64,000 bases of DNA from Octopus vulgaris (taxonomy: Eukaryota), in contig OX597830.1 in the NCBI GenBank assembly GCA_951406725.2, positions 75,144,001 through 75,208,000 of the forward strand. The letters run 5' to 3'. Below are positions 7,846 through 63,204 of the stretch, piece after piece. The stretch's first letter is position 1. Every line of letters starts with the position of its first letter. Position numbers and translations under genes: made by a program. The notes beneath the pieces were generated by a model, which was not told the DNA's origin, made no database searches, and worked only from the letters and a program-made list of their open reading frames with translations.

Positions 7846-7927
<82 letters not shown>

Positions 7928-8340
7928 GGCGCAAGAGTGGCTGTGTGGTGAGTAGCTTACTTACCAGTCACATGGTTCCGGGTTCAGTCCCACAGCGTGG
8001 CACCTTGGGCAAGTGACTTCTACTATAGCATCGGGCCGACCAAAGCTTTGTCTGTGGATTTGGTAGACGGATAATGAAAGAAGCCCGTTGTATATATCTC
8101 TATATATATATGTATGTGTGTGTGTGTTTGTGTGTCTGTGTTTGTCCCCACCCCCAACATCGCTTGACAACCGATGCTTTCGCGTTTACGTCCCGGTAAC
8201 TTAGCGGTCAGTAAAAGAGACCGATAGCCTAAGTACTAGGCTTACAAAGAATAAGTCATGGGGTCGATTTTTTCGACTATAGGCAATGCTCTAGCATTGC
8301 GGCAGCCAAATGACTGAAACAAGTAAAAGAGTAAAAGAGT
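7928..8340 (+). mobile_element. Full-length tRNA-derived CORE-type SINE (Octopus OR-family-like)
   Basis: GGCGCAAGAGTGGCTGTGTGG (A box), GGTTCAGTCCC (B box), CORE-like ACCTTGGGCAAGT, internal (TA/TG)n, tail GAAACAAGTAAAAGA. Multiple copies in the window. Confidence 0.88.
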
Positions 8341-8384
8341 ATATATACATAGATACCTACATACATACATACATGCATACATAA

Positions 8385-8854: not shown

Positions 8855-10104
8855 ATATGGGGGAAGAACTGTTCATTCCATGTCCCAGCTCCCGCTAAAC
8901 CTTGCAATGAAGAGTCTCAAATGCGCAACATTTGCAACAACTCTGCAATAGCAACAGTTCTCCAACAAACTTGCCTCATTGTTTGGGACGAGTGCACTTT
9001 CACATCGTGGAGCACCAGCGGTACTTGACTGTACCCTCCAAATAATAGTACGCTCATGGGGGGAGTAACAGTTCTTCTTGCAAGAGATTTTTTCGTTAAA
9101 CGTTGCCAGTTATCCCCAAAGGAACGAAAGCTGATGAGGTCAATGCATACTTCAAAACATCGTACCTTTGAAGACATGTGATGGAACAATATTAGAGTTC
9201 TTCTACAAGGTGATAATACGGCCTTCTTAAGATTCGTAATATGATATCAACATTCAGCTCAAGAAATTCCATGCGGTCAAATGATACTTTCTCTTTGGGA
9301 CTTTATGGATGAAGTATTTCCCAATTTATCTGTCAATTACACTGATGTAAACTGGCTATGTGAAAGAGCTATACTAGCACCAACTAATGAAATTGATGGT
9401 AAACTCAATCATCAACTTAACAGACATATCAGAAATGACTTTTCCATCAATTGACAACAGTCGATCAAGATCAGGTTGTTCAATAGCTCATTGAATATCT
9501 GAACACACTTAAACCCATTTGGATGCCACTGCATAATTTGACTCTAACACTGGGTGCTCTCACTATGTTGCTTTGGAATCTTGACCCATCTCACTTGTGT
9601 AATGGGACTCGCTTAATTATGACTTCCATGAAGCTCCATGTAATACAGGCAACAATTAGAACAGGTAGTCACAAAGGAGAATATATCCTTATTCCAAAAG
9701 TTCTTCTCATTCTTATAGTTGTTCCATTTGAAATTAAGACGCTTCAGATTCCAGTCAAACTAAGTTTTGGTATTTCAATTCATAAATCTCAGGGTCAATC
9801 CCTCAAGGTAGTTGCACTTGATCTTTCTGCTACATGCTTCTCCCACGGTCAACTCTATGTTGCTTGCTCGCAAATTGGAAGCAGCTACAATATTCATTTC
9901 GATAACATGAAATTACACAATGAATATTGTTTACCCTGATATACTTCAACATTGACAAATCTTCAGTTCAAAATTCTATCACCATTACAATTTGGCTATT
10001 TAAAAGATTAAATGTAGATATTTTGAAATAATTATGAGAATATATGTTTATACTTATTGTTTACTTATCCGAATAACCCAGGCAACGTCAGGTCATTCAT
10101 CTAG
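8855..10104 (+). mobile_element. Decayed Helitron: PIF1-family helicase remnant plus 3' terminus
   Basis: Frameshifted motifs GGRTVHS..LPL, IVWDEC, MGGVTVLL..D, LPVIPKG, WLCERAILAPTN. ORF 9523..9939 has LCNGTRL, QIPVKLSFGISIHKSQGQSL, FSHGQLYVACS. Ends with degenerate hairpin acccaggcaacgtcaggt and CTAG|T at 10101-10105. Confidence 0.92.
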
Positions 10105-10334: not shown

Positions 10335-10880
10335 TCTTTTCTTTGTCTCAGTTGTACTGAACTGCGACCATGCTTTGCCAACGACTTGAAGAGATTTATC
10401 TGAAAGAAACGGCCCATAACTTATTTTTTAAACACGGTTATTTATTCTATCGGCTTTCCTAAACCGCTACATCACACGGACGTAAAGGAACCAGCGCCAG
10501 TTGTCAAGCGGTGATGGGCGAGCTGGCAGAAACGTTAGCACACCGGGCGAAATGCTTACCGGTATTTCGTTTGCCGTTACGTTCTGAGTTCAAATTCCGC
10601 CGGAGCCGACTTTGCCTTTCAGCCTTTCGGGGTCGATAAATTAAGTACCAGTTACGCACTGGGGTCGATGTAATCGACTTAATCCGTTTGTCTGTCCTTG
10701 TTTGTCCCCTCTGTGTTTGGCCCCTTATGGGTAGTAAAGAAATAGGTGATGGGGACGAACACAAACACAAAAACGCAAACGTATACACACATACATATAT
10801 GATGAGCTTCTCCGGTTTCTTTCGGTTTCCGTCTAAATTATTCGCCAACAAACTCCAAAGATGCCCCTGTATAGCCTCGG
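10335..10880 (-). mobile_element. CORE-type SINE (diverged), interrupted by another SINE
   Basis: Matches the reverse complement of the 7928 family (actgcgaccatgct...ttgtcaagcg...tttccgtct...tatagcctcgg); split at ~10518. Confidence 0.75.
10519..10744 (+). mobile_element. Meta-domain-type tRNA SINE nested in an older SINE
   Basis: GAGCTGGCAGAAACGTTAGC..GAGTTCAAATTCC..GCCTTTCAGCCTTTCGGGGTCGATAAATTAAGTACCAG..AAAGAAATA; flanked by GGTGATGGG at 10510-10518 and 10745-10753. Confidence 0.88.
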
Positions 10881-14984: not shown

Positions 14985-15990
14985 AAGTTTGGCACTAGGC
15001 CAGCCATTTTAGCGGGAGGGAGAAATCGATTCATCGATCCCTAACGTTCAACTGGTATTTCTTTTATCGTTTCCGAAACGATGAAAAGGAATGTTGACCT
15101 TGATGGCGTTTGAACCCTGATCATAAAGTCGGAACAAATGCTGCTAAGCATTTTCTCCGGCATGCTAAGCATACAACCAGCCAGCTCCCTTAATACACTT
15201 AATAATCCTTCCTTTTTTAGGCACAAGGCCTTAAATTGGCGGAGTGGGTATAGTCGATTATATCGACTCAATGCTCAACTGATACTCATTTCATTGACCC
15301 CGAAAGGGATGAAATGCAAAGCCAACCTCGGCGGCATTTGAACTCAGAACGTAAAGACGGACGAAATGCTACTAAGTATTTCGTTCGGAGTGTTGACGAT
15401 TCTACCATCCCGACGCCTTAAATAATCCTGTCTATTATACGCACACAGCCTGAAGTTTTGGAGGAAGGGGTTTAATCGATTACAGCGACTCCAGAATTTC
15501 ACTGGTACTTAATTTATCACAATGTCGAATTCGGGGGAATTTGAACTCAGAAATTAAAGACAGCAATTTGCGGGAAGTGGATAAATCGATTACACAGACT
15601 CCAGTGTTCAAATGGTAGGAATTTTATCGACCCCGAAGGGTAAAAAGGCAAAGTGGAACTTGGCAGAATTAGAACCCGGAACGTAAAGGCTGTCGAAATG
15701 CAGCTCAGCATTTTGTTGAGCGTGATAACCATTTCACCAGCTCGCTACCTTACATATAGATATTATTAAGAAGCAATATGCAGACGACGAGTTGGTAGAA
15801 TCGTTAGCACGCCGGGCAAGATGCTTAGCGGCATTTCGCCCGTCGCTACGTTCTGAGTTCAAATCACGCCGATGTCGACTTTGCCTTGCATCCATTCTAG
15901 GCCGATAAAATAAGTACCAGCTGAACTCTGGGTGACGCAAACCGCTTACTCCTCCCCCAAAATCACTAGCTTCGTACCAAAATTTGAGAT
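14985..15990. mobile_element. Cluster of Meta-domain-type SINE copies (several -, last +)
   Basis: Repeated gaactcagaacgtaaagacggacgaaatgc / atcgaccccgaaggg units; + copy gttctgagttcaaatcacgccg at ~15850. Confidence 0.8.
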
Positions 15991-16756: not shown

Positions 16757-16796
<40 letters not shown>

Positions 16797-16803
<7 letters not shown>

Positions 16804-17085
16804 ATCACGTGACCGACCAGGACCATCAGATGTTGTTACACATCGCTGGTCCCAATGCGTTCGCATTGTTTTAGCCTTCGAGTGACGCCACCCCGCTGGC
16901 TAAGCGAGCAGGCAAACAGAAGAAAGAGTGGGAGAAAGAGTGGTGGAAGAGTACAGCAGGGATCACCACCCCCTGCCAGAGCGTCGTGGAGCTTTTAGGT
17001 GTTTTTGCTCAATAAACACTCACAAGGCCCGGTCTGGGAATCGAAACCGCGATCCTACGACCGCGAGTCCGCTGCCCTAACCCTA
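16797..17085 (-). mobile_element. tRNA-head SINE, body type A
   Basis: Head GGTTAGGGCAGCGGACTCGCGGTCGTAGGATCGCGGTTTCGATTCCCAGACC; body ...GCTTAGCCAGCGGGGTGGCGTC...CACGTGATCACGTGAT; same body as the 23226 copy. Confidence 0.85.
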
Positions 17086-17086
17086 A

Positions 17087-17221
<135 letters not shown>

Positions 17222-22837: not shown

Positions 22838-23130
22838 ATGCATCTATGTATGAATGCATGTAAACATGTAACTATCTATGCATGTATGTATGTGTGTATG
22901 TATATATACATGCATCTATGTATGAATGCATGTACACATTTACTTATGTATGCATGTATGTATGTATACATGTATACGTGCATATATGTATGAATGCATG
23001 TATACATTTACTTATGTATGCATGTATGTATGTGTGTATGCATGTATACATGCATCTATGTATGAATGCATGTATACATTTACTTATGTATGCATGTATG
23101 TATGTATACACGTATGCATGCATCTATGTA
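22838..23130. repeat. ~70-bp minisatellite (~4 units)
   Basis: Unit gcatctatgtatgaatgcatgtatacatttacttatgtatgcatgtatg.. recurs, with variation, at ~22840, 22912, 22980 and 23052. Confidence 0.85.
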
Positions 23131-23225
23131 TGTATGTAAGTATGTATATCTGTATGAATACAGGTATACATGTACGTATGTATGCATGTATGTATACATA
23201 ATATGTATGTGTATATGTATGTATG

Positions 23226-23530
23226 TGTGGAGGCGCAATGGCCCAGTGGTTAGGGTAAGGGGCTTTCGGTTTCGAAACTCTCGGTTTCGATTCCCAGACC
23301 GGGCGTTGTGTGTGTTTATTGAGCGAAAACACCTGAAAGCTCCTAGAGGCTCCGGCAGGGTGTAGGGATCCCTGCTGTACTCTTTCACCACTGTTTTTCC
23401 CACTCCTTCCTCTGTTAGCCTGCTCGCTTAGCCAGCGGGGTGGCGTCGTTCAAAGGCTAAAACAATGCGAACGCATTGTGACCAGCGATGTGTAACAACA
23501 TCTGATAGTCGGGTCGGTCACGTGACGTGA
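23226..23530 (+). mobile_element. tRNA-head SINE, body type A
   Basis: GTGGAGGCGCAATGGCCCAGTGGTTAGGG..GGTTTCGATTCCCAGACC..GGTCGGTCACGTGA. Confidence 0.87.
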
Positions 23531-24049
23531 TATGCATGTATGTATTTACTTAGGTATAAATAAAGTTGTCCGTGGTGAGGTTCATCACTCTGAAACGTCT
23601 TGAAATAGTTCATGACTATGATAGTTCTTTAAAATTTTCATGTCTGCGGTCTTTAGAATATAACTACATTCGATCCTACTTGTCCTGCCAACGTGTTTGC
23701 GTGTGAGAGACTGTGTGTGTGCGCGCACACGTATTTGTCTGCGTGTGTTTGTGCGTGTGCAAGTGTCTGTCTGTGCGTGTGAGATTGGTGCGTATGTACG
23801 TTTGTTGGTTATTTACACGTTTTTAGAGACACACACGTATATGTGTGTGTGTATATATATATATATATGCACACACACACACATACACACACACACACAC
23901 ACATATATATATGTATACATGTATATATCTATATATTATAAATATATATACATACACACACACAAACACACATATATACATATATATATATATATATGCA
24001 AAAATACATAGATATATTCATACGCAGCATCTCATTCTTATATATATAT

Positions 24050-27907: not shown

Positions 27908-27960
<53 letters not shown>

Positions 27961-27964
<4 letters not shown>

Positions 27965-28331
27965 AATATTAGGGAATAAATCCAAATTTACAGGAAAAAA
28001 TCAGATTTAGGATTAAATCCAATTTTATAGTAAAATATTATAAAATATTATTAGAGACAAAACCACTATTTTGCAAAACAAACAAGGAAAGACTTAATCA
28101 ATACATAAAATTTTAATAAATAGTCAAAAAAACCGCCACTACAATTGTTTCTTGTCTTGATCGACAATCTTCAGGTGGACTTCCAATAAATCAGTTTCAA
28201 ATTTGAAACTGATAAGATTGTCGATCAAGACAAGAAACAATTGTAGTGGCGTTTTTTGACTATTTATTAAAATTTTATGTATTATTAAGTCTTTCCTTGT
28301 TTGTTTTGCAAAATAGTGGTTTTGTCTCTAA

Positions 28332-28337
<6 letters not shown>
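27961..28337 (-). mobile_element. Penelope-like pLTR-type foldback element, family 1, copy 1
   Basis: Inverted arms ~28045-28201 and 28202-28337 with a spacerless centre and an ~18-bp gap in the right arm; unpaired ~85-bp tail 27961-28044; (AT)n on both sides; carries a hammerhead. PLE assignment is inferred from architecture only. Confidence 0.7.
28136..28178 (-). ncRNA. Minimal type I hammerhead ribozyme (canonical core)
   Basis: ccac CTGAAGA ttgtc-gatcaa-gacaa GAAAC aatt GTA gtgg: stem I ccac/gtgg, stem II ttgtc/gacaa, 2-bp stem III with palindromic AATT loop, GUA triplet. Confidence 0.88.
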
Positions 28338-28385
<48 letters not shown>

Positions 28386-28412
28386 ATAACACGTATATAT
28401 ATATAAATATAA

Positions 28413-28472
<60 letters not shown>

Positions 28473-28477
<5 letters not shown>

Positions 28478-28950
28478 TAGTTATCGCCATACTAATATGG
28501 CAGTCTTATAAATATAAGACTAAAGCTGTCGCTGATTAGCTCCATGGGGCCATCGTCTCAAGCTAGCTATTTGACACACGAACCTGCGTCCATTACAAAC
28601 CTTCGAACAAGGGAGGTCAGCCGCTTCATCCTGCCAATCAGACAGCTACAGACTACGCTGCATTGATAAGGGACAACAACCCGGAAACGTCTGTAGCTGT
28701 CTGACTGGCAGGATGAAGCGGCTGACCTCCCTTGTTCGAAGGTTTGTAATGGACGCAGGTTCGTGTGTCAAATAGCTAGCTTGAGATGATGGCCTCATGG
28801 TGCTAATCAGCGACAGCTTTAGTCTTATATTTATAAGACTGCCATATTAGTATGGCGATAACTATTAATTTCCAGTAACGCTGCCGTAATCTCTTTAGAG
28901 AGACTTAGTAATTTTAATATGAGTACCTATATCGCCAATGATAGAAGTCG
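28473..28950 (+). mobile_element. Penelope-like foldback element, family 2 (181-bp arms)
   Basis: Arms 28473-28653 and 28689-28869 (about 4 mismatches by eye), 35-nt loop, unpaired tail 28870-28950, (AT)n on both sides; homologous to 52630-52778. Confidence 0.72.
28657..28697 (+). ncRNA. Variant minimal hammerhead (U3-A8 core)
   Basis: gctgca TTGATAA ggg-acaacaa-ccc g GAAA CG TC tgtagc: 6-bp stem I (one G-U), GUC triplet, palindromic ACGT stem III, one extra G before GAAA. Confidence 0.6.
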
Positions 28951-28977
28951 AATATATATATATATATATATATATAT

Positions 28978-29363
28978 AATAAATATTAGGGAATAAATCC
29001 AAATTTACAGGGAAAAAATCAGATTTAGGATTAAATCCAATTTTATAGTAAAATATTATATAATATTAATTCGAGACAAAAGCCACTATTTTGCAAAACA
29101 AACAAGGAAAGACTTAATCAATACATAAAATTTTAATAGAAAGTAAATAAACCGCCACTACAATCGTTTCATGTCTTCAAATGACATTCGTCAGATGGAT
29201 TTCCGATTTTCAAATCAGTTTCAATTTATGAAGTGAAGTTAAACTCTAGCCGTTATAACGTCAAACAAAATTACGTTTATTTACTTTATATTAAAATTTT
29301 ATGTATTGATTAAGTCTTTCCTTGTTTGTTTGGCAAAATAGTGGTTTTGTCTCGAATTAATAT

Positions 29364-29366
<3 letters not shown>
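28978..29366 (-). mobile_element. Penelope-like pLTR-type foldback element, family 1, copy 2
   Basis: Near-identical to 27961-28180 over ~200 bp; inverted arm 29275-29366; flanked by (AT)n. Confidence 0.7.
29155..29198 (-). ncRNA. Minimal type I hammerhead ribozyme (canonical core)
   Basis: ccat CTGACGA atgtc-atttgaa-gacat GAAAC gatt GTA gtgg; stem II covaries relative to the 28136 copy. Confidence 0.88.
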
Positions 29367-29420
<54 letters not shown>

Positions 29421-29766
29421 GTATGTATATATATATGAATATATACATATGTATGTATGTGTAATTAATGTTGAAATGAGAAATAAGAAAAGGTGCTAAG
29501 AATGCAGAAAAGTTTTGAAATCATTTGTATTTCGGTCGCAAAGGCATGTCTTCAGAAGAATACATTCACAGAAGTGTGTACTTACATTTTGGATAGTCAA
29601 AATGTTATCCAAAATGCTATCCAAAATAACTGGAGTTATGTAAATAGACATTTCGTTGGATGTGTGCTTATGAAGATAGGCCTTTGCGCCTCAGAAATAT
29701 TAAGGTCTTTTAAAATTCTCTGCATTTTCAGAAACGTTTCTCATTTCGCATTTCATACATTTTATG

Positions 29767-29799
<33 letters not shown>

Positions 29800-31564: not shown

Positions 31565-31567
31565 GAA

Positions 31568-31795
31568 AGGCGGTGAGCTGGCAGAAACGTTAGCAAAGGC
31601 AAAACGCTTAGCAGTATTTCGTCTGGCTCTACGTTCTGAGTTCAAATTCCGCCGAAGTAGGGTTTGCCTTTCACCCTTTAGGGGTCGATTAAATAAGTAC
31701 CAGTTACGCACTGGAGTCGATGTAACCGACTTAATCCGTTTGTCTTTCCTTGTTTGTCCCCTTTATGTTTACCCCCTGTGGGCAATAAAGAAATT
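31568..31795 (+). mobile_element. Meta-domain-type SINE
   Basis: GGCGGTGAGCTGGCAGAAACGTTAGC..GAGTTCAAATTCCGCC..GGGGTCGATTAAATAAGTACCAG. Confidence 0.85.
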
Positions 31796-32581: not shown

Positions 32582-33227
32582 TGCTGCTGTTGCTGTTGTT
32601 GGTGTGGTGGTTATCGTCATATTCGAAATAGCATTTTAATGATAATGGTTTTATTATAAAGAAAAAAGGTCGATACAAGGAGTGCGGAAAAAGAAGAGAA
32701 CATACATTAATAAAATTAAACATTTATCGCATTAACGAAACAAGAGTTTAATCAATACACAAATATTATAACACAATTAATTCTTTTTTTAAAGTAAAAA
32801 GCGCACTAAATATTCAATACATTAATTTAAGAACAGATTAAACTTAAAACATAATGTTAAAGAAGCCGAGGAGAAAATTATGTATACTGATGGGAGTGTA
32901 AAGCTCTTTATTTGATTGATTCTTTGTTACAGAAAAGAGAACAAAACGTTTGGTTAAATATCCTATATATGTATGGAATGTATGGGGTGACAAGGAGGGT
33001 ATGTGCCTTTAACGCGGAAAAACTATGCATGTTTAGGGGCGGTTTGTTCGCTCTGTTTCATCCTGTCACCTGTCTCTTCTTTGTTGCTCCAAGTAGCTTT
33101 TTGCAAGCGATAGCTTCCAATCGCCAATAAACCGTTTTCACGGATGTGGGTAACCGAAGGGCATATAACATTTAGTGAATTAGGGTTTGTCTAAATAAGC
33201 ACGAGACGACTAGATCCGGAGGACTAT

Positions 33228-33425
33228 TCTTTTACTTGTTTCAGTCATTTGACTGCGGCCATGCTGGAGCACCGCCTTTAGTCGAGCAAATCGACCCAGG
33301 TACTTATTATTCTTTGGAAGCCCAGTACTTATTCTATCGGTCTCTTTTGCCGAAACGCTAAGTGACGGGGACGTAAACACACCAGCATCGGTTGTCAAGC
33401 AATGCTAGGGGGGCAAACACATACA

Positions 33426-33482
<57 letters not shown>

Positions 33483-33647
33483 TACGACAGGCTTCTTTCA
33501 GTTTCCGTCTACCAAATCCACTCACAAGGCATTGGTCGGCCCGGGGCTATAGCAGAAGACACTTGCCCAAGATGCCACGCAGTGGGACTGAACCCGGAAC
33601 CATGTGGTTGGTTAGCAAGCTACTTACCACACAGCCACTCCTGCGCC
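33228..33647 (-). mobile_element. Full-length CORE-type SINE
   Basis: Reverse complement of the 7928 family, low divergence. Confidence 0.9.
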
Positions 33648-34104
33648 TATATAAAAGAAATATTTGTGATTCAACAGAGAGGTAGACGACTGTAGCAACG
33701 CATTATAAATATCAAGATGAGGCCAGCAAGACATTTGGTCATCCACAATATATCCGTCTCAATCCCAAGTCGTTTTGACTTGGTTTTCTGACAGGCTCTA
33801 AAGATGATCACGGACGAGAAAGTGGGGTTGACAAAGCTAACCGGCTAAGTAAACATTCATCCCATACTCAAGATGACAAAATGACGCCTATGGCTCCGAA
33901 GGAGGACTATATATTTATGCCCGTGCAAGGTCGGTTGGCTGGGAAGTGAACACCGAAATGATCTGATCCAACTTGCCTCCTTCCACGGTATATTGAATCA
34001 ACCATGAAGCGTGAAATTCGGTACAGGAAAAAGATGTCTACTGCATACGTTGTAGATTTCAATGCAATAAGCAATAAATGGTATTCGTTCCTTCTAATTT
34101 CAAC

Positions 34105-34166
<62 letters not shown>

Positions 34167-34220
34167 TTTCTATTTCATACCCTATCAAGAATAACTATTG
34201 CTTAACCAATCTCTCACACC

Positions 34221-34268
34221 GTCTTTGATGAAGGGTTATAATAAATATCCTGGAAACAGCTGTAAGAT
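34221..34268 (+). ncRNA. Minimal hammerhead-like motif (C3U)
   Basis: gtct TTGATGA agggt..atcct g GAAAC agct GTA agat, in a ~165-bp island between (AT)n tracts; palindromic AGCT loop. Confidence 0.6.
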
Positions 34269-34578
34269 CTATTTATAAATGCTCTGAAATCTTTCACTGC
34301 CTTGGAATTTTATCTCATTATGTTAATATATATATATATATAAAGTCAAGGCATACGTAAAGCTGATTATATATTTGCATATCACTCCAAAAATCAGTAT
34401 AACTGGAGCATAGTCATGGATTTCCAATATAGAATGGTGATGAACCATAACCTCATAAATAGCCTCAAGAATGCGTGGCGTACTTTATTAATCTAAACAT
34501 TGTTGTTGGTCTCGTATACAAACTGAGAGCTTATAAAGCATTTTGCTCGGATTGGTAATCCATCACTACTAACTCTGT

Positions 34579-36358: not shown

Positions 36359-36400
36359 GTGTAAACCCATGTGAGATAAGTCCATTAAACTATCCAACTG
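36357..36400. repeat. 44-bp (AAT)n-associated element, copy 1
   Basis: aagtgtaaacccatgtgagataagtccattaaactatccaactg; one mismatch to copies 2 and 3. Confidence 0.9.
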
Positions 36401-36404
36401 TTTA

Positions 36405-38386
<1,982 letters not shown>

Positions 38387-44944: not shown

Positions 44945-46470
44945 ATATGAAAAAAAGGGGGGGCATATCCGAATGTACACATACACACAAAAATACGCAC
45001 ATCCGTATAAACAAGCAAGCATAAGCGCCCCACAGAGGTGAGCGTGGATGTGCATGCTTGTATGTATGTGTGTATGTATTATTATGTATGTATGTATGTA
45101 TGTATGCATAGATGGATGAATAGATGGGTGTGCATGTGTGTATGTGCATATGTGCACATGTATATGTATCTGTTTATGTATACGTATGTGTTTACGCATA
45201 TGCATGTGTGAATGTTAGTGCGCATGACTGTGTAAATGTAAATATTTCATATATGTATGTCTGCACATGTGTGGAGGCACATGGCCTAGGGGACAGAGCA
45301 GCGGACTTGCGGTCGAGGGGTCGCGGGTTCGAATCTCAGACCGGGCATTTATGAGCGAAACACCAAAGCTCCACGCGGAATGGCAGACTTCTGCTGACTC
45401 TTTCGCCACAACTTTCTCTCACTCTTTCTTGCATCTTGCAGCTCACCTGCGACGGACCGGTGGGGAACCTAAACGCCATGAAAACCGGAAAAACCGGCCC
45501 TTATGAGCCAGGCACGGCTCGAGAAGGAACAAATAAAAAAAGTAACAGGGCTCTTTTACTTCGGGATCAATTTTTGGTATTTCTAGGCATGTGAATTAAT
45601 TTGTGTATTTATTTGTATGCACATACTCGCACGACATATTCACGCGCACACACACAAACAGTAATGAAGTATACACTTATATATGTAATACAGTGATATT
45701 CTCACACACAACACTCGTATAAGTATGTGCATGTACATGCCTACAAATAAATACACAAATTCATTCACATGCCTAAAAATACAAAAAAATTGTCCAGAAG
45801 TAGAAGAGCCTTGTCACGTTGTTAGTGACCGACTTAAAGTGCGCAGAAGGAAAAAATAAATGGATCACATTCATAAAAAACATATAAATACAAACATTCA
45901 CACATATTTGTGTCTATGTATAAATTTATATTTGTACATTTACGCTTACATTAATGCACACACACATACACACACACACACATATATATATATATAAATG
46001 TTCATGTACATATATTTATATGTACTTACATGTGCATGCACATACATATTTATAAATATGTACATTATCTTCGTCATGCGCCCTAACATTCATACATACA
46101 TACATACATATACATAAACACATACATATACATGAGCACATACACACACACATATGCACATTCATTCATCCATGCATACATACATAGACGCACATACATA
46201 CATGCATATATAATACATACCCATACACACACACACACACACACACACGCACATTCATCCAACCATGCAGCTATACATAGACGCGTGCACACATGCACAC
46301 ACACATACACACACAGACTGTGCTACAATGTCAACAACCGATGACCGTAACTTTATGCTTATGTTTGCGCACGCTCACCTCTGAGGGGGTGCTTATGCTT
46401 GCTTATTTATACAGATGTACGTATTTTTGTTTGTATGTGTACGTTCGGTATTTTCACCACTTTTTACATA
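44945..46470. repeat. ~1.5-kb old foldback (nested inverted repeat)
   Basis: Paired blocks 44967-45046/46370-46450, 45210-45270/46028-46091 and 45549-45627/45722-45810. Confidence 0.8.
45271..45535 (+). mobile_element. tRNA-head SINE, body type B, in the left arm of the foldback
   Basis: GTGGAGGCACATGGCCTAG..GGTTCGAATCTC..GGCTCGAGAAGGAAC. Confidence 0.85.
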
Positions 46471-50719: not shown

Positions 50720-51560
50720 CGTTTCTACTCTAGGCACAAGGCCCGAAACTTTTGGGGAGGGGGTCAGTCGATTAGATCGACCCCAGTACGCAACTGGTAC
50801 TTACGTTATCGACCCCGAAACGATAAAAGACAAACTTTTCTTCGGCGGAATTTGAACTCAGAATATAATGGCAGACGAAATACCACTAAGCATTTCGCTC
50901 GGCGTGCTGACATTTCTTCATTGCCCACCAGGGGTTAAACAGAGGGGACAAACAAGGACAGACAAACGGATTAAATCGATTATATCAGTCCAAGTGCGTA
51001 ACTGGTACTTAATATATCGACCACGAAAGGATGAAAGGCAAAGTCGACCTCGGCGGAATTTGAACTCAGAACGTAGCGACAGATGAAATACCGCTAAGCA
51101 TTCCGCCTGGCGTGCTTAACGTTACTGCCAGCTCGGAGCCTTTAGTAAGCGCTATTATTCTTTTCTTCTCTAGGCACAAGGCCTGAAAGTATGGGGGAGG
51201 GGACCACTCCATTAGAGCGACCCCAGTACGCAACTGCTACTTAAATGATCGATCCCGAAAGTATGAAAGGCAAAGTCGACCTCGGTGGAATTTGAACTTA
51301 GAACGTAACGGGAGACGAAATACCTATTTCTTTACTACGCACAAGGGGCGAAACACGGGGGGGGGGCAAACAAGGATAGACAAACGGATTATGTCGATTA
51401 TATCGACCTCTGTGCGTAGCTGGTACTTATTTAATCGACCCCGAAAGGATGAAAGGCTAAGTCGACCTCGGCGGAATTTGAACTCAGAACGTAGCCGCAG
51501 ACGAAATACCGCTGAGCATTTCGCCCGGCGTGCTTAACGTTTCTGCCAGCTCGTCGCCTT
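50720..51560 (-). mobile_element. Head-to-tail multimer of Meta-domain-type SINE units
   Basis: Four units with cggcggaatttgaactcagaa-like B-box region and two alternating 3' ends (..tttgtcccc.. and ..ggccttgtgccta..). Confidence 0.85.
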
Positions 51561-51679
51561 TAATTACCTACTTATTCTAAAATAGAAGATATGGTCACGG
51601 TTTTATGATGGTCAAGGGAGCTGACCAATGAAATCATAGATCATATTGTTTACTGCTTTATAATTTATTTTCTTTTATT

Positions 51680-52083
51680 CTTTTATTCCTTTTACTCGTT
51701 TTACTGCAGCCATGCTGGAGCACCGCCTTTAGTGGAAGAAATTGACCCCAGGACTTGTAATCCTAGTACATATATGTTACGGGGACGTAAACACACCAGC
51801 ATAGGTTATCAAGCAAGGTTTGGGGGGACAAACACAGACAGTCAAACATATACACACACATACATACACACATACACACATATACACACACACACACATA
51901 TATGTGTATATATATATATATACGATGGGCTTCTTTCAGTTTCCGTTTGCCAAATCCAGTCACAACGCTTAGGTCGACTCGAAGCTATAGTAGAAGACAC
52001 TTGTCCAAGTTGCCACGCAGTGGGACTGAACCCGGAACCATGTGGTTGGTAAATAAGCTACTTACTACAGAGCCACTCCTGCA
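51680..52083 (-). mobile_element. CORE-type SINE
   Basis: Reverse complement of the 7928 family. Confidence 0.85.
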
Positions 52084-52540: not shown

Positions 52541-52593
<53 letters not shown>

Positions 52594-52595
<2 letters not shown>

Positions 52596-52778
52596 GAGAA
52601 CATCGTCTCCAGCTAGCTTTAGGCACACTTTCTGTGTCTAAAGCCAGCTGGAGACGATGTTCTCCTGGGGCTACAAGCTACAGTAACAGCCACCCTTAGT
52701 GGTTAGCCATATTGAGATGGCAAGTATACTTCACACTGTCGTGCAGTTATACTTCGTTCAGAGATTTATTATTGCTTA
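52594..52778 (+). mobile_element. Short foldback related to family 2 (28473)
   Basis: Hairpin aggagaacatcgtctccagctagctttaggcaca/tgtgtctaaagccagctggagacgatgttctcct (52594-52666) plus tail; between (AT)n tracts. Confidence 0.65.
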
Positions 52779-61496: not shown

Positions 61497-62019
61497 ATAT
61501 ACATACATACATATATATACATGTATGTATGTATGTATGTAAATGTTTATAAGCACATAAATATATACACAGAAGCATTAATAAATAATACATACATATG
61601 TAAGTACATGTATGTATATTTATGTATGTAAGTACGTACATATGTATGTATGTACGCATGGATGCATGCATATATGTTTATATGTATGTAAGTACGCATG
61701 TATGTATGCATGCATGTATGTATATATGTGTGTATGTTTGTTTGTTTGGATGTATTATTGTGTCCCGTATCATGCAGGCTCCATTCATTATTTACATTGT
61801 GCTTCAGAGATTGAACAATGGAAAGAGCGAAACGAACGTCTGCAGCCCATAAGATACTGTTGTCAATAAAATAAATACAGTGTACACTCAAAATGTATTG
61901 AGTCCATTTTTTAATATCATCTAATAATATGATAAAAACGGAAGGAGTAAAAGTAAAAAAGAAAATAGCATTATGTATAGCTTGCGTATCATAAATAATA
62001 TGTAGAGAGCTACATAAAT

Positions 62020-62392
62020 TATTTCAGTCATGTGACACTGGCCATGCTGGAGCACCGCCTTTAGTCGAGCAAATCGACCCCCGGACTTATTCTTTGTAAT
62101 CTAATACTTATACTCTCGGTCTCTTTTACCGAACTGCTAAATTACAGGAACGTAAACAGACCAACATCGGTTGTCAAGCGATAGTGAGGGAACAAACAGA
62201 CACACACACATACACACACACATATGTATACGACGGGCTTCTTTCAGTTTCCGTCTACCATATCCACTCACAAGGCTTTGGTCGGCCCGAGGCTATAGTA
62301 GTAGACACGTGCCCAAGCTGCTTCACAGTGGGACTGAACTCGGAACATGTGGTTTGTAAGCAAGCTACTTACCGCACAGCCACCAATGCGCG
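62020..62392 (-). mobile_element. CORE-type SINE
   Basis: Reverse complement of the 7928 family. Confidence 0.85.
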
Positions 62393-62461: not shown

Positions 62462-62625
62462 GGGGGCAGTTTAGTCTAATGGTAAGGCACTCAGCCGGTG
62501 TCTTCGGGGATATTGGTTCGACTTCCATGTCTCTTTGTCGACATCTTTTCCTACCTTGTCAGGGTAATAATACCTGATTTTGATGGGTATATTGGGCTTC
62601 GTATATTTGTACCCGAGAGTCACTC
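62462..62625 (+). mobile_element. Short tRNA-derived SINE of a further family
   Basis: A-box-like TAGTCTAATGG, B-box-like GGTTCGACT; 3' end gatgggtatattgggcttcgtatat..gtcact followed by aataataat. Confidence 0.5.
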
Positions 62626-63204
62626 AATAATAATAATGTCAATAGCAACTATGATATTATTATTCATGCCATAAAAGTGACACTAGTGTAATATATACGA
62701 AACCCTATATACCCACCATGACTACCCATCTGATAAGGATACACCAGGTACATGCATCAAATACATATGTGCGCAACATAGTGATTTCATATCAAGAAAA
62801 AACAGTGCATGATCTTGCAGGTAGAGCACAGATAGAAGATTTTAGGTCATACCGCTCAAAAGGTTCCTGAAAAAGGCTCGTTTGAGGATGTTGAACGAAA
62901 CACCCATGTTTCCAGATGTGAATTATTCGAATCTTATAGAATTCCTCTTGACACATGGCTATGAGGCTCCTCCATTATTTCTGCTCGTGATCAGATAAGC
63001 AAATATTTTCTGCCACTAAGGGACACGCTCAACTAGTGAAGGACAAACAACTGGCAAGCAAATCTGTGGTAGTGAGCAGAATATTTGCTGTAGCCCATCT
63101 TTTATAGCAAGACAAAACATATAAATGATAACACTTCCAATCAGTTAAGATCAGAAGCCATGAGAGCCACTACTTAGTATTGCCTCAAGGCATTATTGCT
63201 GTTG

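Follow-up and report, generated by a model that had tools for sequence, protein, structure and literature searches.

Organization of the locus

Two type I hammerhead motifs, HH1 and HH2, were located on the minus strand of an AT-rich and microsatellite-rich stretch of Octopus vulgaris DNA of 64 kb, which is referred to as the window. Each motif lay within a foldback element of its own (E1 and E2, respectively), and (TA)n tracts split the surrounding region into four modules, all of which were foldbacks, E2, E3, E1 and E0 (Table 1). An earlier note on this DNA had placed both motifs correctly; it had missed that they belonged to two separate (TA)n-flanked foldbacks lying beside two more.

Table 1. 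Positions of the hammerhead motifs, foldback elements and (TA)n tracts in the window.
Feature	Position	Strand	Description
(TA)n tract left of E2	27912..27961	.	
E2	27962..28337	-	Second foldback, same family as E1, different subfamily letters
E2 tail	27962..28044	-	On one side only, about 85 nt
HH2	28136..28178	-	Type I hammerhead motif; predicted cut 28140/28139; predicted sequestration by the inverted arm of E2
Palindrome	28190..28213	.	Perfect, 24 nt; head-to-head junction of E2
E2 inverted arm	28214..28337 (28213-28337)	+	Antisense to 28045-28172
(TA)n tract separating E2 from E3	28338..28474	.	
E3	28475..28951	+	Unrelated foldback between E1 and E2; tail 28870-28951
E3 hammerhead	28657..28697	+	Minimal type I hammerhead, decayed, in the middle of E3; CUGANGA altered by two transitions; stem I of 6 bp
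(TA)n tract separating E3 from E1	28952..28977	.	
E1	28978..29363	-	Foldback; likely the 3' end (pLTR) of a Penelope-like element, 5'-truncated and inverted
E1 tail	28978..29062	-	About 85 nt past the inverted repeat, single-sided; internal repeat of about 20 nt
HH1	29155..29198	-	Type I hammerhead motif; predicted cut 29159/29158; unpaired centre of E1
E1 stretch upstream of HH1	29199..29273	-	Not duplicated in the arm
E1 inverted arm	29274..29363	+	Agrees with its own direct arm at 88/91 columns
(TA)n/(TACA)n tract separating E1 from E0	29364..29466	.	(TA)n at 29364-29408
E0	29467..29761	.	Older unrelated foldback; 67.5% arm identity
Further (TA)n tract	29769-29796		

E1 and E2 were both about 380 bp in size and were built, on the minus strand, in the order of inverted arm, junction, hammerhead, direct arm and tail. 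The two elements were identical at 336 of 377 ungapped columns (89%), and their tails were 98% identical over 58 nt. The inverted arm of E1 copied the direct arm starting 4 nt past the HH1 cut site, and therefore the ribozyme was left in the loop. The arm of E2 extended backwards across stems III and II as far as the core and was antisense to HH2 from the core end onward. It was devoid of the 18 nt, situated between two CTGA words, that carried the 5' strand of stem I, therefore the plus-strand copy contained no hammerhead. The arms started at +4 nt relative to the cut site in E1 and at -3 nt in E3, and the arm of E2 did not start near the cut. The 5' part of the E1 stretch upstream of HH1 was missing from E2 and was matched by contigs in three of the four public runs compared.

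The arms of E3 were 181 nt long (28473-28653 and 28689-28869) and 98% complementary, and its tail of about 80 nt was found on the side expected from the ribozyme orientation. The arms of E0 held decayed hammerhead-like cores near 29670 (plus strand) and 29555 (minus strand). A relaxed hammerhead descriptor gave four matches in the window, when 30 shuffles gave a mean of 0.27 and a maximum of 2. The alignment scores of E0 and E3 to E1 were no better than those of shuffles, hence the tract collects unrelated families.

Several related structures were noted in passing. At the E3 junction (28649-28653, 28689-28704), a 5-nt word could double as the natural outer strand of stem I (a 3-nt bulge, then 6 bp); read by eye, this word was a possible fold-back microhomology. 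A relative of the E3 3' end was present at 52593-52776 between (TA)n tracts as a 73-bp hairpin only, having the same end, a shorter inversion and no ribozyme. A solo 163-bp element at 34163-34325 (plus strand, core at 34225), also between two (TA)n tracts, carried a hammerhead in which U replaced C3 and stem III was an 8-nt palindrome; it resembled HH1 and HH2 in style and was unrelated to them in sequence. A minimal hammerhead at 26482-26447 (minus strand) had the G10.1-C11.1 pair, an extra base before stem II and A6 changed to U, and it showed a loose similarity to the E0 arms.

Hammerhead motifs

HH1 and HH2 contained the CUGANGA, GAAA and GUA (NUH cut site) core elements in the type I order. 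Stem I consisted of 4 bp, stem II of 5 bp, and stem III of 2 bp closed by a 4-nt loop. A strict type I descriptor, applied to both strands of the 64 kb, matched exactly the two minus-strand segments reported earlier, 29198-29155 and 28178-28136, and nothing else. In 100 block-wise (local) dinucleotide shuffles, the same descriptor gave a mean of 0.01 and a maximum of 1 match, and none of the shuffles reached 2. A pattern of the core only was a much poorer discriminator, with 13 matches when 5.3 were expected. Cleavage was predicted after 29159 and 28140, and the piece between the two sites was 1019 nt long, in agreement with the previously calculated spacing. At the level of sequence, HH1 and HH2 were confirmed as real type I hammerhead motifs.

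The term "canonical", which had been given to both motifs, was too strong a label, because the G10.1-C11.1 pair, called highly conserved in hammerheads (PMC4209133), was absent and no Rfam hammerhead family was matched; the type I assignment itself held. The pair at the base of stem II (10.1-11.1) was A-U in HH1 and U-A in HH2. The Rfam search of the whole window gave no matches at the gathering score and 37 matches at E<=10, with no hammerhead family among them. The latter matches were hairpin-driven miRNA models, every one under its gathering score, and were rejected. The changes of N7, loop II and the stem II pair, earlier read as covariation, were present; as covariation they were weak, since N7 and loop II are free to vary and U.U is common at the pair site. 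The U-G in stem I of HH1, read before as tolerance, also called for a correction. All or nearly all of the depth at 29195 carried the HH2 letter in the three public runs that covered this position, therefore the wobble in HH1 was private to E1.

In isolation, the hammerhead fold lay 4.6 (HH1) and 3.8 (HH2) kcal/mol above the ensemble and thus was not the predicted minimum. Free folding of the isolated HH1 and HH2 motifs gave no hammerhead fold (z of 0.94 and 0.23). With regard to tertiary contacts between loops I and II, the motifs showed a possible bulge of 5 nt with U as its last base and a loop II with AA at its end.

The 8-mers of stem III of HH1 and HH2 were able to cross-pair with one G-U, as the earlier note had stated. 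Each of them was also palindromic or nearly so on its own, and the cross-pairing followed from this palindromic stem III, a trait of the family. The self-helices were calculated at -5.8 and -6.4 kcal/mol, when the cross-helix had -6.1 kcal/mol. The cross-helix was no stronger than the self-helices, therefore it was uninformative on the HH1-HH2 pair in particular.

Predicted folding of read-through transcripts

It had been proposed that HH1 and HH2 could act as a functional pair, in which a read-through RNA would pair the stem III palindromes, cut itself twice and free a 1019-nt RNA that could be circularised. Both cores were intact and lay on one strand 1019 nt apart, and on paper the 8-bp cross-helix formed together with swapped stems I in a sterically nested arrangement. 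Further, the hammerheads of Penelope-like elements (PLEs) have been proposed to act as dimers (PMC4209133). This part of the premise stood. The need for dimers was only partly right, as cleavage of monomers was reported for invertebrate motifs, in coral and mussel, and the helix III of these motifs was described as 2 bp with a tetraloop (PMC7229834).

The proposal was examined by using ViennaRNA ensembles, which are equilibrium predictions with proteins and editing left out. In all three read-through transcripts tried, the forced double hammerhead was predicted to cost +63.4, +81.7 and +93.9 kcal/mol, and the pair probability of HH2 stems I and II was 0.000. The monomeric HH1 cost +5.3 to +9.9 kcal/mol in the same transcripts. 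Such a penalty of 63-94 kcal/mol for the double fold was explained by the sequestration of HH2 by the E2 arm. The duplex of this arm was calculated at -184.7 kcal/mol, and any RNA with both cut sites would include the arm, transcribed ahead of HH2. The cost of HH2 was +3.8 kcal/mol alone, +4.3 kcal/mol in E2 without the arm and +52.7 kcal/mol with the arm, which bore out the previous caveat that the inverted arm may block the downstream ribozyme. Hence, HH2 was predicted to be locked in a duplex of about 125 bp in any read-through RNA. HH1 was predicted to be the only one of the two that stays foldable, and it might cut on its own if the minus strand were transcribed.

The spacer likewise spoke against the pair. 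It consisted of the 181-bp hairpin of another family and microsatellites rather than of a tandem monomer, whereas known animal retrozymes are 170-400-nt tandem repeats (PMC7229834). The cleavage of PLE dimers in vitro was weak (PMC4209133). One PLE ribozyme cut only with its protein and was dispensable for insertion in vitro, and no read ended at its cut site (PMC11167929). On the folding predictions, a joint double ribozyme or an RNA circle at the locus was unlikely. Considering the predicted fold penalty, the probably separate insertions and the mosaic spacer together, the excision of a circularisable 1019-nt RNA by a functional pair was left unsupported and was regarded as extremely improbable.

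Origin of E1 and E2

It was proposed, with a probability of roughly 80%, that E1 and E2 are two separate insertions of PLE 3' ends (pLTRs), 5'-truncated and inverted, in a (TA)n hotspot. Both elements displayed the features by which truncated PLE copies are recognized, namely an abutting inverted copy, a tail at one end, insertion into (TA)n and membership of a repeated family. The PLE origin was proposed from the anatomy, the target and the ribozyme style. No reverse transcriptase, GIY-YIG or PLE-type Pfam match was found near the locus among 251 of 498 frames (stop-to-stop, at least 55 aa, low-complexity frames dropped), and Pfam matches occurred only elsewhere in the window; E1 and E2 were not classed as autonomous. 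The tail of about 85 nt was at odds with the PLE assignment, since 30-40 bp are reported (PMC8557442). Target-site duplications were unreadable within (TA)n. A MITE or DNA-transposon reading was rejected, as the arms joined head-to-head at variable points and the tail was found on a single side.

The insertions could have proceeded as follows. A PLE reverse transcriptase and a GIY-YIG endonuclease would prime at (TA)n, the tail, arm and ribozyme would be copied, and the synthesis would halt just upstream of the ribozyme. A fold-back or a template switch at a palindrome or microhomology might then produce the head-to-head inverted copy. A single microsatellite would have been filled by repeated events of this kind, involving at least three families. 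Tandem pLTR copies in the parent element would be able to dimerise by their palindromic stem III, and the ribozymes at the present locus would be passengers.

The arms were further compared column by column. The direct arms of E1 and E2 differed at eight columns. Among these, the E1 inverted arm agreed with E1 at six and with E2 at one, and the E2 inverted arm agreed with E2 at seven and with E1 at one. The identity of an arm to its own partner was 88/91 and 87/89, and between the elements it was 83/91. The arms followed their own element, therefore each hairpin was either built from its own template or homogenised later. The latter belongs to another scenario, in which one insertion was duplicated locally, E3 was inserted afterwards and the arms were homogenised by gene conversion; such homogenisation could mimic an independent origin. 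E1 and E2 were the sole two copies of the family in the window, 1 kb apart on the same strand, and this arrangement, like the near identity of the tails, agreed with a duplication and counted against independence. Nevertheless, the two elements had no unique flank in common, only (TA)n, and their 5' junctions differed in structure. In addition, E2-type letters dominated a run of another organism (see below), therefore they were older than the locus. The local duplication was thus regarded as highly unlikely.

Distribution of the family in public runs

Part of the region was found in 21 of the 24 public runs listed, under three organism labels; no run labelled as RNA was among those listed with it. 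Four runs (X1, X4, X6 and X12, the last being contigs merely guessed to be RNA) were aligned to 28980-29275 (296 nt) only, at 80% likeness, and X6 had no cover past 29179. All figures given for these runs are contig depths, not copy numbers. The numbers of contigs fitting the 296 nt were 1022, 1796, 697 and 58 per run, including 697-1796 distinct contigs in each of the three DNA or unlabelled runs. Judging from these matches, public DNA runs contain the E1/E2 family in highly repeated form. Pattern scans for the family gave no matches in metagenome contigs and none in viral contigs.

E2-type letters at 29141 and 29145 accounted for 97% and 96% of the depth in X6, 10% and 3% in X4, and 0.6% and 1.6% in X1, respectively. 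They were dominant in X6 and rare in X1, therefore both types were family-wide. The stem III letter at 29165 was split as well, the E2-type making up 67% in X1 and 34% in X4. The public runs favoured the own-template origin of the hairpins over later homogenisation. Position 29187, one side of the 10.1-11.1 pair, varied (16% of the depth in X1 and 21% in X4) at the same depth as N7 (29190); its partner 29171 had no listed row, which proves nothing. At the catalytic positions, no row of a DNA run reached 4%, though absent rows prove nothing here either.

The summed depth in X1 fell from the tail towards the upstream side, from about 1e6 to 5e4 and 2e3. This drop fits 5' truncation and is only a hint, since it may reflect divergence below the 80% cut-off. 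The depth profile was also pertinent to the main rival of the PLE insertion reading, a non-autonomous, SINE- or retrozyme-like family of pLTR size, whose ribozyme unit of about 250 nt would be moved by PLE enzymes in trans. Both direct copies began close upstream of the ribozyme, and the summed depth in X1 decreased from 33957 (29190-29199) to 2405 (29220-29229), although depth gives no more than a hint. In X12, a joint with a strand switch was present at 29145/29229, and a preprint argued that animal retrozymes derive from PLE pLTRs (10.64898/2026.07.22.740005). On the other hand, E1 reached about 45 nt further 5', and this extension was matched in three of the four runs. No head-to-tail joint was seen among the matches listed, the contigs being short, and most PLE hammerheads are solo, truncated copies (PMC4209133). 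We considered a family of this kind unlikely.

An extended form of this idea may be put forward with just as little confidence. The family would be undescribed, very abundant and non-autonomous, it would employ PLE enzymes in trans and fold back on insertion, and an E1-like ribozyme in the hairpin loop, competent as a monomer, would cut the apex of long double-stranded read-through RNA. If this were true, the start of the arm near the cut site in E1 and E3 would record cleavage in vivo as a footprint in the genome; such cleavage is demonstrated for PLE ribozymes nowhere in the portions of the PLE literature compared here.

Comparison with known systems

For the PLE insertions proposed here, the ribozyme style and the target make the Hydra clade a candidate. 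PLEs are described as having inverted copies truncated at the 5' end, a tail on a single side and (TA)n targets, and a (TA)n target is given for 26 of the 27 Hydra-clade families listed (PMC8557442). In all 26 Hydra-clade ribozyme rows of that source, helix III is palindrome-like (AC...GU) and 3-4 bp long, and a G-C pair is mostly absent from the base of stem II; counted by eye, U.U occupies this position in 14 of the 26 rows, two of which repeat another row. A single change would lead from U.U to either A-U or U-A, therefore two such changes could give both pairs seen in HH1 and HH2. By eye, the two motifs fit the Hydra-clade style better than the canonical G10.1-C11.1 form.

Like Hydra-clade PLEs, E1 and E2 had a (TA)n target, a ribozyme about 240 nt from the 3' end (about 90-425 nt there), a 4-bp core of stem II beside a position other than G-C, and a palindrome-like helix III ending in GUH. 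One Hydra-clade entry has a 5'-truncated inverted copy, as E1 and E2 do (PMC8557442). Unlike these elements, E1 and E2 carried no ORF, had a longer tail and differed in sequence from the Hydra-1_Obim ribozyme, and their helix III was a palindrome of 8 nt, an even number that leaves no loop nucleotide, instead of the 1-3 found there. Two short E1/E2 motifs had no match in the supplement of PMC8557442 by a search that can miss wrapped or cut sequences.

PLE hammerheads are known for a palindromic helix III and occur by the thousands in animal genomes, mostly as dispersed solo truncated copies (PMC4209133). HH1 and HH2 resembled the minimal or atypical type I motifs of that study in the CUGANGA/GAAA/NUH core, the 4-bp helix I and the palindromic helix III, as well as in the dispersed solo copies with neighbours on the opposite strand. 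They departed from the form described there in the lack of G10.1-C11.1, a stem II of 5 bp instead of 7-8 and a helix III longer than the minimal one.

An anatomical parallel was provided by Adineta vaga Penelope, in which inverted pLTRs are joined head-to-head with palindromes at the junctions (PMC3846280). E1 and E2 shared with it the head-to-head repeat, the junction palindrome, the tail on one arm and the microhomology deletion. They differed in that just the pLTR-sized ends were left and the target-site duplication could not be read. The PLE curation rules given in PMC8969392 agree with the inverted 5'-truncated copy and the one-sided tail.

Metazoan non-LTR retrozymes were similar to the locus in that their type I hammerheads share a strand and enclose no coding sequence. 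The locus contained no head-to-tail ribozyme-bearing units of about 170-400 nt, by which retrozymes are recognized, and differed further in its mosaic spacer and in the antisense arm on the second ribozyme. Recently active Penelope families are listed for Octopus vulgaris in PMC13282606, the available part of which makes no mention of hammerheads. In the accessible literature on octopus and cephalopod PLE hammerheads, where PMC8557442 alone was relevant, the E1/E2 family was undescribed, and the supplements of PMC13282606 and bioRxiv may hold it.

As read here, the locus has an ordinary origin and likely adds an uncatalogued family of PLE ends. It clearly illustrates how four foldback insertions can be stacked within a single (TA)n tract, and it shows why a double ribozyme may not be deduced from two hammerheads that lie close together and have a palindromic stem III. 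The locus would gain weight if HH1 cut as a monomer or if the inversion points clustered at the cut site throughout the family, because either would bear on the in vivo role of PLE hammerheads (PMC8557442, PMC11167929).

Other features of the window

Old inverted repeats with 69-72% arm identity were found at 45536-45823, 62581-62718 and 15601-15931, the last of which looks like two SINE-like copies placed head-to-head. A fragment of a Pif1 helicase 2B domain at 9487-9936 (plus strand, E 4e-12) was likely a Helitron remnant. Weak matches below the cut-off, RVT_1 at 36389-36610 (E 0.0024) and zf-RVT at 37394-37570 (E 0.00048), both on the plus strand, were likely parts of a decayed LINE. A dispersed SINE-like repeat of about 230 bp was abundant and 80-88% identical (10517-10747, 31566-31794, 36940-37138, 50912-51561 and others). 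Two dispersed families of about 420-440 bp were also recorded, one at 7922-8346, 33225-33653, 51663-52082 and 62019-62391, and the other at 16765-17206 and 23122-23562.
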